DNA of 64,000 bases from Candidatus Aphodoplasma sp. (GCA_045626925.1 JAZUQZ010000003.1:18526-82525), one strand, 5' to 3'; shown: positions 57,239-62,990, counted from the first letter of the stretch. Translations and numbers: made by a program. The notes: generated by a model from the letters alone, not told the origin.

Positions 57239-57928
57239 ATGAGTGAAAACCTGAGTTTAATAGATATAATAAAAATAATTGCAAAATGGTGGTGGCTTGT
57301 AGCTATTGTCTCCATTTTGTGCGCAAGCGGAATGTATGTGTATTCTGAATATTTTGAAGACGATATATATGTTTCAAAGGGTAGCTTTTACATACGCTCA
57401 GCTACTACAAATATAGAAAACATCACTATCGCAACACTTAATGCAAACACTCGTTTTAGTGAAACATATATTGAACTTGCAAAGAGTGATAGTGTGCTTG
57501 AAAAGGTATCGCAGGAACTTGTAAACAAGGGATATCAGCCTGCTTCAGCTGTTGCACTTCGCAGTGTTTTGAGATTTTCTGTACTTAACGAAACAGAAGT
57601 ATTAGAAGTAAGCGCCGAAAATCGTGACCCCCAAAAAGCGCAGGATATAACTAATGCAGTTTTAAAAGTTGCACCGCAAGAAATTAAAAACATTGTAAAA
57701 GCCGGCGGGGCGGAAGTGGTGGATGAGGCAAAGCTTCCAACACAACCAACATATCCAAATGTTTTAAAGAAAACACTTGTTGGATTTTTTGTGGGGTTTG
57801 TTATAGGATGTGTCATCATATTCATACTAGAATTTTTTGATTTAAGAATTAAACCCGATAATAATCTTGAAGAAATGTATGGGATTCCGGTAATTGGTAA
57901 TATTCCGGAAATAAAAAATAAGCTATAA
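57239..57928 (+). CDS. Polysaccharide chain-length determinant / tyrosine-kinase modulator (Wzz, CpsC/EpsA-like)
   Basis: N- and C-terminal TM helices flank an extracytoplasmic domain. Immediately precedes the BY-kinase. Confidence 0.85.
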   Translation: MSENLSLIDIIKIIAKWWWLVAIVSILCASGMYVYSEYFEDDIYVSKGSFYIRSATTNIENITIATLNANTRFSETYIELAKSDSVLEKVSQELVNKGYQPASAVALRSVLRFSVLNETEVLEVSAENRDPQKAQDITNAVLKVAPQEIKNIVKAGGAEVVDEAKLPTQPTYPNVLKKTLVGFFVGFVIGCVIIFILEFFDLRIKPDNNLEEMYGIPVIGNIPEIKNKL

Positions 57929-57967
57929 ATCAGGGCTTATTTGATTTTTTATAAGGAGTATGTACAT

Positions 57968-58996
57968 ATGTTTGATTTACTAAAAGGTAGCAGCAAAAAG
58001 AAAATCAGAAAATATAATTATGAGTCAAGTGCAGCAAACATACTTCACGAGGATTCGGAATTTGTCGTAAATGAAGCGTATAAAGCTATGAGAACGAATA
58101 TAATGTTTTCATTCCATGATGATGATTCATGTAAGACTATTGTGTGTACGAGTGCTATGCCGGGCGAGGGTAAGACAACGACATGTATAAATATGGCTAT
58201 TTCGTTTGCTCAAACAGGTAGCCGTGTACTACTTGTTGATGCTGACCTTCGAAAACCTAAAATAGACAGATATCTTGATATAGAATCCGGACAGGGAGTA
58301 TCTGATTATTTAGGAGGCTTTGTAAAAGACATTGATAGCATCATAGTGCATCTTGAAGACAGGGGTATTGATTGCGTCGTTGCAGGTAGTATACCACCAA
58401 ATCCTTCGGAGCTTTTAGGCTCTGAAACTATGGAAAAGTTCATTAAAACTATGGAAGGAAAATATGATTATATATTTGTAGATGCGCCACCTGTAAATAT
58501 TGTTACAGATGCTATTGTACTTGCAAAATTTTGTTCAGGTATAGTGGTTGTTGTAAAAGAGAACAATACAACGCACGATATGCTTAAAAATGCAATTGGC
58601 GCAATACAATTTGCAAATATTAAGATATATGGCTTTATAGTAAACGGAAGTGAAATAAAAAGGCGTGGCAAGTATCGTTATAAGAAAAAGCGGTATGGCT
58701 ACGGCAGTTATGGCTATGGCTACGGCTATGGTTACGGCTATGGCGAGGGTTATGGAAGCAATCCGGATAGAAGGAAAAAAGCAGAGGAAATTGCAGAAAA
58801 GGATGAAAATAAAAAAGCAGAGAAAGAGGAAAATCCAAATCTTGAGGATGTGCTTGGAGATACACCATTAGACAATGACACAAGAGAAAAAACAGAAGAA
58901 ATTGTTGAGGAAGTTGTTGAAAAAAAGACAGAAGATGAAATGCAAGAAGTAGAGATTGCACCGGAAAATTCAGAAGATACAATAGAAGACAAATAG
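57968..58996 (+). CDS. Bacterial tyrosine (BY) kinase, CpsD/EpsB-like, with long acidic C-terminal extension
   Basis: Walker A GEGKTT, A' VLLVDADLRKP, B IFVDAPP. Tyr cluster YRYKKKRYGYGSYGYGYGYGYGYGEGYG, followed by ~80 aa of E/K/D-rich tail. Confidence 0.85.
   Translation: MFDLLKGSSKKKIRKYNYESSAANILHEDSEFVVNEAYKAMRTNIMFSFHDDDSCKTIVCTSAMPGEGKTTTCINMAISFAQTGSRVLLVDADLRKPKIDRYLDIESGQGVSDYLGGFVKDIDSIIVHLEDRGIDCVVAGSIPPNPSELLGSETMEKFIKTMEGKYDYIFVDAPPVNIVTDAIVLAKFCSGIVVVVKENNTTHDMLKNAIGAIQFANIKIYGFIVNGSEIKRRGKYRYKKKRYGYGSYGYGYGYGYGYGEGYGSNPDRRKKAEEIAEKDENKKAEKEENPNLEDVLGDTPLDNDTREKTEEIVEEVVEKKTEDEMQEVEIAPENSEDTIEDK
58673..58756 (+). repeat. Tandem (TAT/TAC-GGN)n repeat encoding the YG tyrosine cluster
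   Basis: tatggctacggc / tatggctatggc / tacggctatggt / tacggctatggc units are seen directly in the sequence. Confidence 0.8.
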
Positions 58997-59052
58997 TGGA
59001 TTTGTTATAAAAGAATATATCGAGTATCTTTTTTTGAAAGGAAAGATAGCAA

Positions 59053-60951
59053 TTGAAAATAAGGGGAAAATTATTTAAACTCTTATGGGGAGTAGCAGAT
59101 ATCTTAATAGTTGCAGCCGCATATTTACTTGCAATGTATTTTATAAAAGACAAGCTTCCGTCAAATGCAGAAGAATTGTTAAATTTTGAATATACTGTTG
59201 CAAGTGCCGCAGGCGTGTATGTAATTGCATTGTGCACGGTGGGTGGTTATAGCACATTGTGGAGATATGCAGGCCTAAGGGAATATTTAATGTGTGCTGG
59301 CGCGTGCTTTGTATCCTTTGTGATATTATCTGTTGCATCGCTATTTGCAAGGAATATTTTGTATGCACTTGGTTTTCATGTTTTTGCATTTGCAATCATT
59401 GTGCTTGGATGTATATCTGTTCGCATATTACCGCGTATCAACCTTCATATTTCAAGAAAAAGAGAAGATGCAAAAAGTGGAAACAAAATAGCAAAGAGAG
59501 TTAATTTGCTTGTTATCGGAGCAGGAGCTGCTGCAAAAAAGGTTATAGATGATATTCGTATAACAGAGCCAAAGTATAGGATTATCGGTGTGATAGATGA
59601 TGACAAATCAAAAATAGGCAAAAAGGTATTTGGTACAAGAGTATTGGGTACAAGAGATGATATTATAACGATTTGCAGAGAAAATAAAGTAAGGGAAATA
59701 TTGCTTGCGATTCCTTCGATAAGTTCTGCGGACAAAAAGATTATCCTTGATATATGCAATAAAACCTCGTGCAAGGTTCGTATGTTGCCGAGCCTTTCGG
59801 AAATGATTAACACAGATAATTTCAACAAAGTTGTAAGAGATATACAAATCGAAGATTTGCTTGAGCGCGAACCGATTTCACTTGATACGACAAAAATTTC
59901 GGATTATATACAAGATAAGGTGATTTTGGTAACAGGCGGCGGTGGTTCGATTGGGTCAGAGCTTTGCAGACAAATTGCACGCTTTAAACCTAAAAAGCTT
60001 TATATACTTGATGTATATGAAAATAATGCATATGATTTAGAAAATGAACTTAAGACAAAATATCCTGATTTGCCGTTTGAAATAATTATTGCAAGCGTGC
60101 GCGATATGGATAGAATGGATAGCATATTTGAAAAGTTCCGTCCGGAGATTGTCTTTCATGCGGCGGCCCATAAGCATGTTCCTCTTATGGAGATAAACCC
60201 GTCAGAAGCTATAAAAAATAATGTTCTTGGAACATTTAAGACTGCGATTTGTGCACATAAATATCGTGCAAAAAGATTTGTTTTGATTTCTACTGACAAA
60301 GCGGTAAACCCAACAAATATTATGGGCGCGACAAAGCGTGTTGCTGAGATGATTATTCAGTCGATGGACCGCATGAGCAAGACAGAGTTTGTGGCGGTTC
60401 GTTTTGGAAATGTTTTGGGTTCAAATGGTTCTGTTGTTCCTTTATTTAAAAAGCAAATCGAGAATGGCGGGCCGGTTACACTTACACACAAAGAGATAAC
60501 GAGATTTTTTATGACTATTCCGGAAGCATCGTTGCTTGTGCTTGAGGCGGCATCGTTTGCAAAAGGCGGAGAAATATTTGTTCTTGATATGGGCGAGCCT
60601 GTAAAAATATATGATTTGGCAGTTAATTTAATAAGATTGTCTGGGCTTGAACCTGATGTTGACATAAAGATTGAAACGATAGGACTTCGAGATGGAGAAA
60701 AGCTTTATGAGGAGCTTTTGCTTGCAGAGGAGGGTCTTCGAGAAACCTTTAATAAGAAAATATTTGTTGCAGCACCGATGAGTTTTGATTGGAACGAGTT
60801 AAATGCGCGTCTTGAGTCGCTCTATGATGCGGCGGCAAATCTTGATGAAGATGAAATAAAAAGCATATTAAAACAGATTGTTCCGACATATCATAGCCCT
60901 GACATGGAACAAAATGACGACGATGAATGTGATGAGGAAACGGATATATAA
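59053..60951 (+). CDS. Membrane-anchored polysaccharide biosynthesis protein CapD/EpsC-like (UDP-sugar 4,6-dehydratase family)
   Basis: Four N-terminal TM helices. Two Rossmann segments (VIGAGAAAK; VTGGGGSIGSEL). SDR-like core. TTG start. Confidence 0.85.
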   Translation: MKIRGKLFKLLWGVADILIVAAAYLLAMYFIKDKLPSNAEELLNFEYTVASAAGVYVIALCTVGGYSTLWRYAGLREYLMCAGACFVSFVILSVASLFARNILYALGFHVFAFAIIVLGCISVRILPRINLHISRKREDAKSGNKIAKRVNLLVIGAGAAAKKVIDDIRITEPKYRIIGVIDDDKSKIGKKVFGTRVLGTRDDIITICRENKVREILLAIPSISSADKKIILDICNKTSCKVRMLPSLSEMINTDNFNKVVRDIQIEDLLEREPISLDTTKISDYIQDKVILVTGGGGSIGSELCRQIARFKPKKLYILDVYENNAYDLENELKTKYPDLPFEIIIASVRDMDRMDSIFEKFRPEIVFHAAAHKHVPLMEINPSEAIKNNVLGTFKTAICAHKYRAKRFVLISTDKAVNPTNIMGATKRVAEMIIQSMDRMSKTEFVAVRFGNVLGSNGSVVPLFKKQIENGGPVTLTHKEITRFFMTIPEASLLVLEAASFAKGGEIFVLDMGEPVKIYDLAVNLIRLSGLEPDVDIKIETIGLRDGEKLYEELLLAEEGLRETFNKKIFVAAPMSFDWNELNARLESLYDAAANLDEDEIKSILKQIVPTYHSPDMEQNDDDECDEETDI

Positions 60952-61002: not shown

Positions 61003-61031
61003 TTGACTTTGAAAAAATTAAGTGGTATGAT
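61003..61031 (+). promoter_or_regulatory. Near-consensus promoter of the 37-aa peptide gene
   Basis: TTGACT (61003-61008), 17-nt spacer, extended -10 TGgTATGAT (61023-61031). Confidence 0.7.
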
Positions 61032-61064
61032 GTAATTAATGAGTATTGGAAGGAGTGTATTATT

Positions 61065-61178
61065 ATGAAAAAGACATACGAGAGACCAGAACTTGAAGAG
61101 GTTCTTTTTGACACACAGAACATAATGGCAGCTAGCCGTATTGAGGAAGGCGACGAAGATAGTTGGGAAAACATTTAA
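61065..61178 (+). CDS. 37-aa acidic peptide with RiPP-leader-like YxxPxL motif (absent from the ORF track)
   Basis: Hand translation: MKKTYERPELEEVLFDTQNIMAASRIEEGDEDSWENI. SD GGAAGGAG 8 nt upstream. Has its own strong promoter and is followed by a hairpin. Confidence 0.6.
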   Translation: MKKTYERPELEEVLFDTQNIMAASRIEEGDEDSWENI

Positions 61179-61213
61179 TCGCTTGATACTTGATAAATGT
61201 TTATAATCAAAAG

Positions 61214-61243
61214 ATAGGCAGACGGATGTTTCCGTTTGCCTAT
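61214..61243 (+). terminator. Hairpin between the peptide gene and the SLH gene (weak/leaky terminator)
   Basis: ATAGGCAGACGG (61214-61225) / CCGTTTGCCTAT (61232-61243), 12 bp with one G-U pair. Only a short T tail (TTTAA). Confidence 0.5.
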
Positions 61244-61272
61244 TTAACTCTAAAGAAAAGGAAGGTAATATT

Positions 61273-62232
61273 ATGAAAAAGCTACAAATGAGCAGGATTG
61301 TTTCTTTAGTATTGGCACTTTGCATGATGTTTTCTGTAATGCAGATTACGGTGTTTGCTGATGAAGTGACATTTAGTGATATGCCTGATAACTGGGCAAC
61401 AGCTGCATTAAAGAAGGCTGTTGAGAATAATCTTCTTGCTGGTTCTGATGGAAAGATTATGCCTGATGCTAGTCTTACTCGCGCACAAATGGCGACTATT
61501 ATGTCGCGCGCATTTGGTGCAACAGAGCTAGCGGACATTTCATCGTTTAGCGATGTAAAAGAAGATGCTTGGTATTATGAATATATGTCAAAAGCGGTTG
61601 AAATGGGAGTTTTTAAGGGCGATGGTGCAAGTCTGAACCCTGAAAATAATATTACTCGCGAAGAGGCCTTTACAGTATTGGCGCGTGCGTTTGCACTTGA
61701 AAATGCAGGTGCAGATGTTCTTGTTGATTTTGTTGATAAGGATAGCGTTTCAAGCTGGGCAGTTCCTACGGTTGCTGCTATTGTTAAAAACAATTATGCA
61801 AAGGGCTCTGACGGATATCTTAATCCAAACAGCAACATTACCCGTGCAGAATTTGCAGTGCTTATGAATAATATTGTAAAAGTATATATTACTTCGCCTG
61901 GTGTATGCAATTCAGTTGAAAAGGGAAATGTTGTTGTTCGTACGAATGGCGTTACATTTTCTGGGGTTAAAATTGATGGTGATTTGATTGTTGGACCATC
62001 AATAACTGCTAAAGGCGTTATATTGAAGAATTCTTCTGTAACGGGACGCATCGTTGGTGATGATGAGCAAAATAAGATTGAAAAAATAACAACCGAAGTC
62101 GGTGGCGGTTCGGGCGGTGGTCCAAGTGGCGGCTCAAACAACGGCTCGGGGAATAACACCGGTACAGACGATACAAGTGATGAACATTTTGGTTTGGATG
62201 GCGGAATAGAAGATGGCGGAGAATTTGAATAA
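61273..62232 (+). CDS. Secreted S-layer-homology (3x SLH) domain cell-wall protein with Gly-rich acidic tail
   Basis: Signal peptide ending VFA-DE. Three SLH repeats (TRAQMATIMSRAF, TREEAFTVLARAF, TRAEFAVLMNNIV). C-terminal GGGSGGGPSGGSNNGSGNN. Confidence 0.85.
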   Translation: MKKLQMSRIVSLVLALCMMFSVMQITVFADEVTFSDMPDNWATAALKKAVENNLLAGSDGKIMPDASLTRAQMATIMSRAFGATELADISSFSDVKEDAWYYEYMSKAVEMGVFKGDGASLNPENNITREEAFTVLARAFALENAGADVLVDFVDKDSVSSWAVPTVAAIVKNNYAKGSDGYLNPNSNITRAEFAVLMNNIVKVYITSPGVCNSVEKGNVVVRTNGVTFSGVKIDGDLIVGPSITAKGVILKNSSVTGRIVGDDEQNKIEKITTEVGGGSGGGPSGGSNNGSGNNTGTDDTSDEHFGLDGGIEDGGEFE

Positions 62233-62950: not shown

Positions 62951-62958
62951 AAATCTAA

Positions 62959-62990
62959 AAAACTGTTTTCGTTTTGAAAACAGTTTTTTG
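62959..62990 (+). terminator. Intrinsic terminator after the HprK-like gene
   Basis: AAAACTGTTTTC (62959-62970) / GAAAACAGTTTT (62976-62987) plus a T-run. Confidence 0.8.

Follow-up and report, generated by a model that had tools for sequence, protein, structure and literature searches.

A reduced clostridial operon with a candidate LppA-like precursor peptide gene and an HprK-like kinase gene in Candidatus Aphodoplasma sp.

Ordinary gene calling misses the 37-aa peptide gene that we present here. It is located in a 64,000-nt window (the whole stretch of DNA that was analyzed) of Candidatus Aphodoplasma sp. (GCA_045626925.1, JAZUQZ010000003.1:18526-82525), between capsule/EPS genes and the genes for a secreted S-layer homology (SLH) protein and a ScmC-family, HprK-like P-loop protein. 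The features of the locus are listed in Table 1.

Table 1. Features of the peptide-SLH-kinase locus, in window positions
Feature	Position	Strand	Remarks
Capsule/EPS genes upstream (Wzz-like, CpsD-like BY-kinase, CapD-like)	57239-60951	+	Genomic context only
Sigma-70-type promoter, TTGACT-17-TG.TATGAT	61003-61031	+	10/12 matches plus TG extension
Shine-Dalgarno sequence GGAAGGAG	61048-61055	+	Spacing to ATG, 9 nt
Candidate LppA-like precursor peptide gene, 37 aa	61065-61178	+	Stop codon included; family profile searches
Conserved leader, codons 1-21, with Y5xxP8xL10 and F15-D-T17	61065-61127	+	Strain alleles, pN/pS
Hypervariable acidic core region, codons 22-37	61128-61175	+	Contains Ser24 (family-conserved junction Ser) and Ser33
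Hairpin, perfect 15-bp stem, 4-nt loop, weak U-tail	61212-61245	+	Leaky terminator or mRNA stabilizer
Secreted SLH protein gene	61273-62232	+	Pfam SLH 4.9e-30, 3 repeats
ScmC-family HprK-like P-loop protein gene (LppK-like kinase), 245 aa	62213-62950	+	Overlaps SLH gene by 20 nt
Bidirectional intrinsic terminator at operon end	62957-62989	.	14-bp stem, A/T runs on both sides

The peptide gene and its operon

The open reading frame (ORF) encodes MKKTYERPELEEVLFDTQNIMAASRIEEGDEDSWENI, exactly the translation given in the original prediction, which had been made from the sequence alone. As also predicted, residues YERPEL fit the motif YxxPxL, Thr is present at position 17, and Cys is absent. Ser33 sits in a DSW motif, and the C-terminal residue is Ile, at a position that varies across the family. 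The promoter with an extended -10 element and the Shine-Dalgarno sequence that had been placed ahead of the ORF were both recovered. TTGACT (61003-61008) is followed by 17 nt and TGgTATGAT, with the -10 hexamer at 61026-61031. This is the best promoter-like site of the region, which is AT rich and shows no enrichment of promoter-like matches (11 seen versus 13.6 expected). The hairpin had been described as a 12-bp stem at 61214-61243 with a poor U-tail; the U-tail is indeed poor, and the stem is longer. A 101-nt segment containing it folds at -24.8 kcal/mol (z = -3.75 versus shuffles), and a simple terminator scan missed it. Searching the peptide gene region against Rfam gave no family match, and an RNA element in place of the gene was rejected on this basis. 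Pfam and NCBIfam searches of the peptide gave no match; the sole StsA leader match was to a relative and at chance level.

Strain-level relatives (loci L081 to L087) were found via the protein database (P0129 and P0177). Their flanking DNA is approximately 98 to 99% identical, and the differences gather in codons 22 to 37. Between the window and L081, 7 of 48 nt differ in the core versus 2 of 503 elsewhere (Fisher p = 8e-7), and other strain pairs give p values of 5e-8 and 3e-6 for core versus rest. Codons 1 to 21 carry a single synonymous change among the strain alleles, and the L085 allele has an in-frame 3-nt deletion in the core that keeps the reading frame. Two distant syntenic loci, L125 and L126, have a peptide gene in the same position, encoding MKKIYEKPVVDEVIFDTQNILETSGIEQDEIGGN and MKELYERPMIDEIIFDTKAVMSGDIAEGSDREIEEEIM, respectively; their kinases share 54% and 59% identity with the window kinase. 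The promoter position is kept in L081, L085, L125, and L126, and the Shine-Dalgarno core GGAGTGT is invariant in the latter two. In comparisons of the window leader with those of L125 and L126, pS is 0.54 to 0.80 and pN is 0.14 to 0.26, values that indicate purifying selection on the leader. Because the promoter, Shine-Dalgarno sequence, ORF, and hairpin are conserved, the leader has a pN/pS of 0.26 to 0.40, the indel is in frame, and the substitutions cluster in the core, we conclude that the 37-codon ORF is a real, conserved gene. Lack of conservation or of purifying selection, which the original prediction had named as grounds against it, was thus not found.

Stable hairpins (z = -3.2 to -7) are also present directly 3′ of the peptide gene in L125, L126, L100, L109, and L093. 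The stem and the following UAUUUAACUCU are near-invariant (window 61212-61254, L125 5906-5950, and L126 1928-1970). Their preservation despite diverged cores and kinases suggests a sequence-specific role beyond termination, such as a protein or RNase site.

The SLH protein has a Gly-rich, acidic tail ending in ...GGIEDGGEFE. Resemblance between the peptide core (IEEGDE) and this tail (IEDGGE) was considered as mimicry and rejected, since the alignment scores did not exceed those of shuffled cores or of cross-locus pairs (p = 0.07 to 0.69); as judged from these scores, the likeness is compositional only. A linker rich in Gly and the conserved C-terminal motif GGI(E/D)DGG are common to the SLH proteins whose genes immediately precede the kinase gene (window 61273-62232, L035 4809-6011, L043 4999-5979, L125 6013-7017, and L126 1992-3011); the L035 and L043 loci have no peptide gene ahead of the SLH gene. 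The terminator at the operon end is a near-perfect palindrome of 14 pairs, AAAAAACTGTTTTC...GAAAACAGTTTTTT, and separates the operon from a DUF2232 gene.

Beyond the upstream capsule genes are a flippase and an ABC-2 exporter gene, and Pfam searches of the window neighbors returned EPS, ABC-2, PFOR, and similar genes only. In the CpsD-like P-loop protein (57941-58996), a Tyr-Gly repeat of unusual length (YGYGSYGYGYGYGYGYGEGYG) precedes a long tail rich in Glu and Lys; in the L126 homologue, the YG run is longer still. HMM searches in all six frames found no PqqD, S26/SipW-like peptidase, or NTP_transf_5 protein in the 64-kb window, and the peptide-SLH-kinase operon contains no MsbA-like exporter gene; the pathway is therefore incomplete in the window. 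The HMM and Pfam searches likewise agree with the prediction that no RRE, protease, or cyclase gene is nearby. The same reduced operon of peptide, SLH, and ScmC genes is located between EPS genes and DUF2232-gdpP-rplI-dnaB in L081/82, where ScmC is 96% identical to that of the window, and in L125 and L126. It is therefore a maintained arrangement and no fresh deletion.

The kinase, its related loci, and the peptide family

The window kinase matches the NCBIfam models for ScmC (TIGR04249; E = 1.5e-11, 44.1 bits versus an equivalog cutoff of 125) and HprK-related kinase A (TIGR04352; E = 0.0035, 16.5 versus 200 bits). Pfam Hpr_kinase_C does not match it even at an E value of 10, and a PDB sequence search found no relative. 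Its family has more than 6,000 matches, and homologues carry the precomputed Pfam assignment PF27840 ("ScmC"). An AF2 model (pLDDT 92, pTM 0.89) was compared using Foldseek, which returned ATP-dependent PEP carboxykinases (PEPCK; E of ~2e-6, TM of ~0.5 over the query) and HPr kinase/phosphorylases (HprK/P; E of 4e-5 to 2e-4, TM of ~0.4 to 0.6 over the target for the C-domain), with 11 to 14% identity to these fold relatives. The predicted structure is that of a PEPCK-like P-loop protein. The fold is shared with HPr kinase/phosphorylase and ATP-dependent PEPCK; the window protein belongs to a different family with a different substrate. Among 34 homologues, including the window protein, there is no variation in the GTGKSTH P-loop or in the NDDKP and GTPWSGK motifs, and the kinase, as modeled, looks intact. 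The best sequence family matches of the enzyme, the ScmC (TIGR04249/PF27840) and HprK-related kinase A (TIGR04352/TIGR04353) systems, are predicted peptide modification cassettes in which the enzyme is paired with a PqqD homologue and for which the precursor is not identified. No radical SAM/SPASM partners (ScmE/F) were present in the neighborhood clusters, and searches of the literature on ScmC and SynChlorMet found nothing relevant.

Two samples of loci were compared, 80 genome loci seeded with the kinase and 44 further related loci. Among the kinase-seeded loci, PqqD is encoded immediately downstream of the kinase in 33, an S24/S26 peptidase of ~155 aa in about 35 (best NCBIfam match TIGR02228, archaeal-type signal peptidase I, 1.7e-9), and an MsbA-like ABC exporter in about 20; NTP_transf_5 is also recurrent. 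The peptide is present in 11 of the 80, almost always just upstream of ScmC. Among peptide-seeded metagenome loci with enough flanking sequence (~11), 7 carry the cassette. Six of these have the order peptide-[SLH]-ScmC-PqqD-S26, plus ABC and NTP_transf_5 where the contig allows, and the seventh (L114) is on a contig that stops just past ScmC. Database look-up gave the same arrangement in L093 to L095 and L088. The order extends to peptide-[SLH]-ScmC-PqqD-S26-ABC-NTP_transf_5 in L004, L024, L076, L093, L097, L100 to L102, L104, and L109. An SLH gene is located between peptide and kinase in L024, L081, L100, L101, L109, L125, and L126, and full-length cassettes with an SLH gene in this slot are those of L024, L100, L101, L102, and L109. 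Next to many of the related cassettes are EPS genes (clusters c7, c9, and c22), and SLH proteins are often nearby. The original prediction had made linkage to the HprK-like gene a test of itself, and the counts of 11/80 and 7/~11 loci with the peptide gene directly upstream leave no ground for rejection there. In roughly half of the 80 ScmC loci, cassette genes and the peptide are both absent from the neighborhood, so that ScmC may act on other substrates. The only conserved small ORFs near ScmC are the peptide family and PqqD, and other apparent small-ORF families were discarded as PqqD or its antisense shadows. In two Acutalibacteraceae metagenome-assembled genomes (L066 4536-6681 and L074 3545-5753), PqqD and ScmC directly follow three type IV pilin-like genes with the N-terminal sequence KGFTLVELMIVV, and no peptide of this family is nearby.

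A family HMM was seeded from small ORFs adjoining homologues of the P-loop gene and used in a profile search of 5.8 billion proteins, which gave 202 peptides with E values down to 1e-12, ~120 of them below 2e-5. None of the 202 has a name or Pfam domain. A profile search of 1.84 billion 50%-identity cluster representatives gave 4,938 matches at E ≤ 1e-3, and by these searches, the family is very large and so far unnamed. Its consensus is MKKxYxxPE(L/I/M)E(I/V)xxFxxEDV(I/L)TxS, followed by a hypervariable tail. Among 133 members analyzed, the tail is net acidic in 132, W, F, or Y occurs among the last six residues in 117, Cys is present in the tail of 2, and the junction residue is Ser in 116 (87%). 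The clade of the window lacks the EF..EDVIT part of the leader, and the EDVITxS segment reads QNIMAAS in the window peptide.

Several variants were observed. A subfamily with the same leader and a 28-aa non-acidic tail ending in ...NSLGQ (L091 4668-6596 and L092 1101-3029) has no ScmC linkage and is located after an HtrA-like trypsin-PDZ protease gene and a 56-aa ORF. Tandem pairs of a long and a short family member recur beside a solitary ScmC gene (L051 426-769, L084 7571-7915, and L047 702-1003); the long member (MISKAYEKADF...TTTLPATT...DYSDFFQQ) is Thr/Pro rich and 58 to 78 aa long, and the short member ends in ...GGQWY. The peptide gene is downstream of a gene for a large secreted protein in many loci, among them L004 (3488-5692), L093 (6580-8985), L097 (213-1337), and L125 (3933-5651), with gaps of 15 to 25 nt, or ~120 nt in L097 and L125. 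Several of these large proteins contain Flg_new repeats and share the end motif ARxYVxYKDxxGxxxTxYSxxV.

Comparison with linear polyphosphorylated and lasso peptides

Linear polyphosphorylated peptides (LPP) were first described by Popov et al. (Nat Commun 2026;17:6633; PMC13381572), in Bacilli only. Their clusters are embedded in capsule loci and encode the LppA precursor, LppK HprK-like kinase, LppB RRE, LppS SipW-like SpI, LppD MsbA-like protein, and LppN NTP transferase (PMC13381572). LppA has the motif YxxPxVLxHQxIxFETxxS and a variable C terminus; in heterologous expression, LppK added 1 to 4 phosphates to core Ser3, LppS cut after Thr-1 of FET and required LppB, and LppN was inactive (PMC13381572). 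The final product and function of LPP are not yet known (PMC13381572). The "HprK kinase" class of that study was defined by TIGR04249 and TIGR04352 matches (PMC13381572, Supplementary Data 2), and its table lists clostridial SpI clusters (Dehalobacter, Anaerocolumna, and Ruminococcus) with "other" RREs and precursors marked "ND" (PMC13381572).

The window shares with LPP a kinase of the same class adjoining a precursor gene, a likeness based on the two TIGR models and the PEPCK/HprK fold. A capsule locus setting is also shared, with Wzz-like, CpsD-like, and CapD-like genes immediately upstream. The short candidate precursor resembles LppA in outline, with a leader of the form MKKxYxxPx(V/L)...F(E/D)T and a variable core. 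The related clostridial loci additionally have the PqqD RRE, archaeal-type SpI, MsbA-like exporter, and NTP_transf_5, in the same order. The cassette S26 HMM matches the published clostridial SpI entries best (1e-52 and 4e-39), followed by LppS (2.5e-20), and the cassette PqqD HMM matches the published clostridial RRE entries best (1e-36 and 4e-32), followed by LppB (2e-15). Aligned using hhalign with 11 published LppA sequences, the family profile pairs MKKTYERPEL---EEVLFDT with KKVYEAPQVLAHQMIQFET (E = 6e-4, probability 28%); this is a weak and short alignment of 17 columns (residues 1 to 17) with a 3-residue gap, in which FDT falls on FET (-3 to -1). From the shared kinase models, the cassette HMM matches, and the leader alignment, we infer that the clostridial cassette is a sister branch of LPP and that the peptide family is its previously unassigned precursor.

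The two branches differ in several respects. The clostridial leader has 3 residues fewer between YxxP and F(E/D)T, lacks HQxI, and has an extra EDVITxS segment. The conserved Ser of the window peptide comes 7 residues after FDT, whereas that of LPP is at +3 after Thr, so that the published LPP site is not directly transferable. Clostridial cores have a uniformly acidic character and a C-terminal aromatic residue; in Bacilli, the cores are often basic or Gly/Pro rich. The window keeps only the precursor and kinase of the LPP set, with the SLH gene between them, and lacks counterparts of the RRE, SpI, exporter, and NTP_transf_5 genes. The feature is a reduced clostridial variant of a recently published RiPP family and no new kind of system.

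Phosphorylated lasso peptides (paeninodin, and pseudomycoidin with phospho-hexose) also have an HprK-like kinase acting on a precursor Ser, as well as a PqqD-type RRE for a [Y/W]xxP leader, an NTP_transf_5 partner, and an ABC exporter (PMC8498205). The clostridial loci differ from them in having neither a macrolactam cyclase nor a B2 cysteine peptidase. Lasso kinases target a C-terminal Ser, whereas the window peptide ends in Ile. To recognize its Ser, the paeninodin kinase relies little on other parts of the peptide (PMC8498205).

Interpretation of the reduced operon

The reading that we prefer, with a probability of about 0.65, is that the ORF encodes an LppA-like precursor, that this precursor belongs to a clostridial branch sister to LPP, and that it is modified by the ScmC-type HprK-like kinase encoded next to it. 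The strong promoter and Shine-Dalgarno sequence would yield abundant precursor, and the hairpin may stop some transcripts before they reach the SLH and kinase genes; it probably sets the ratio of precursor to enzyme. The peptide is most likely the substrate of the neighboring kinase. By homology with LppK, the P-loop kinase would use ATP to phosphorylate the peptide, once or several times, on a Ser hydroxyl. The best acceptor candidate is Ser24, because of its conservation in the family and its place at the leader/core border, like Ser3 of LPP; the alternative is Ser33. Kinase action without an RRE is plausible given the behavior of the paeninodin kinase.

In complete cassettes, the PqqD RRE would bind the YxxPxL leader, the SipW-like peptidase would remove the leader, the MsbA-like pump would export the core, and the NTP_transf_5 enzyme may decorate the phosphate. 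Without these four genes in the window, either the maturation genes are unlinked or a phosphorylated, leader-bearing acidic peptide remains. Cleavage could occur after Thr17, as in the FET alignment, or nearer residues 22 to 24, where hypervariability begins. The -3/-1 small-residue rule would place the cut after Ser24, and the published FET site aligns with FDT17.

These relatives also bear on the broader claims of the original prediction. Its reading of the peptide as a RiPP-type precursor gains support from the conserved leader and variable core, the kinase linkage, and the presence of PqqD in complete relatives. Its reading of YxxPxL as an RRE recognition motif is likewise favored, since complete relatives encode a PqqD RRE right after the kinase and the same motif binds the RRE in the LPP family (PMC13381572). 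Of the two mass shifts that it put forward, +80 Da (phosphorylation) is the one that the homologous LPP kinase would lead us to expect, and -18 Da (lactam) is not supported, with no cyclase or B2 peptidase in any related cassette.

Other explanations were weighed. The peptide may be a genuine small acidic protein or signal that is not modified, with the ScmC-like protein acting on the Gly/Asp-rich SLH tail, a capsule intermediate, or an unlinked peptide. ScmC is solitary in housekeeping contexts in many loci (beside dinB, thyA-dfrA, or polA), SLH-ScmC pairs without the peptide occur in L003, L007, L017, L035, and L043, and the RRE that normally mediates leader recognition is absent from the window. 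We nevertheless consider this explanation unlikely: the peptide adjoins ScmC in many unrelated contexts, including pairs without other cassette genes (L008, L071, L084, and L114), the homologous LppK acts on a linked precursor, related lasso kinases need no RRE (PMC8498205), and cores and SLH tails are alike in composition only. Very unlikely is decay of a complete LPP-like cluster, which would have left the peptide and kinase as nonfunctional remnants. The genes for PqqD, peptidase, exporter, and NTase are missing here and come after the kinase in the most similar full-length loci (L100, L101, L109, and L024), yet the operon of three genes is retained, promoter and hairpin included, where the kinase is only 54 to 59% identical, the leader is under purifying selection, the invariant kinase residues are all intact, and the reading frame is kept across the indel.

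The layout of promoter, short ORF, hairpin, and downstream genes, together with a hairpin sequence better conserved than the peptide C terminus, could also describe a cis-acting leader peptide, the translation of which controls the hairpin and thereby attenuates the SLH and kinase genes. The stop codon is 33 nt ahead of the stem, which a terminating ribosome would therefore not reach, and no competing anti-terminator is predicted at the hairpin. Homologues occur in tandem, behind genes for large surface proteins, or kilobases from ScmC (L088, L084, L051, and L075), and a conserved N terminus with a hypervariable C terminus is the reverse of the pattern of stalling peptides, which makes attenuation highly improbable. 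Least credible, with only a slight chance of being right, is a lasso peptide precursor with its cyclase and protease encoded elsewhere. The YxxPxL leader and the acidic residues 7 to 9 positions past Ser24 would suit a lasso peptide, and kinase, PqqD, NTP_transf_5, and ABC pump genes all occur in paeninodin-type lasso clusters. Neither an Asn-synthetase-like cyclase nor a transglutaminase-like B/B2 protein is recurrent in the 80 and 44 related loci or present in the window, however; the SipW-like peptidase occupies the protease slot, as in linear LPPs, and Bacillota paeninodin-type leaders use WxxP (PMC13381572).

A bolder extension of the preferred reading, an LppA-like precursor with its own kinase, is that the clostridial peptides form a distinct and very large class of acidic phosphopeptides (~5,000 clusters at 50% identity), that the kinase of the reduced operon phosphorylates alone, without RRE, peptidase, or exporter, and that the product works with the SLH protein and the capsule locus. 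We regard this extension as possible and rather doubtful. Were it true, the hypervariable core would provide strain-specific surface or signaling identity (for example as a pherotype, in kin recognition, or by altering recognition by phages or antibodies).

A strain-specific function at the cell envelope or between cells is suggested by the hypervariability of the core and by its gene's linkage with capsule and SLH genes, and core diversification at the strain level, together with this linkage, bears on what the peptide does. The peptide family supplies a precursor for clostridial SpI/RRE clusters previously listed as "not determined" (PMC13381572). The conserved precursor-plus-kinase operon offers a simple setting for questions about the RRE dependence of the kinase. 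With distinct cores numbering in the thousands, the system seems to be widespread among Clostridia from gut, rumen, and digester samples.
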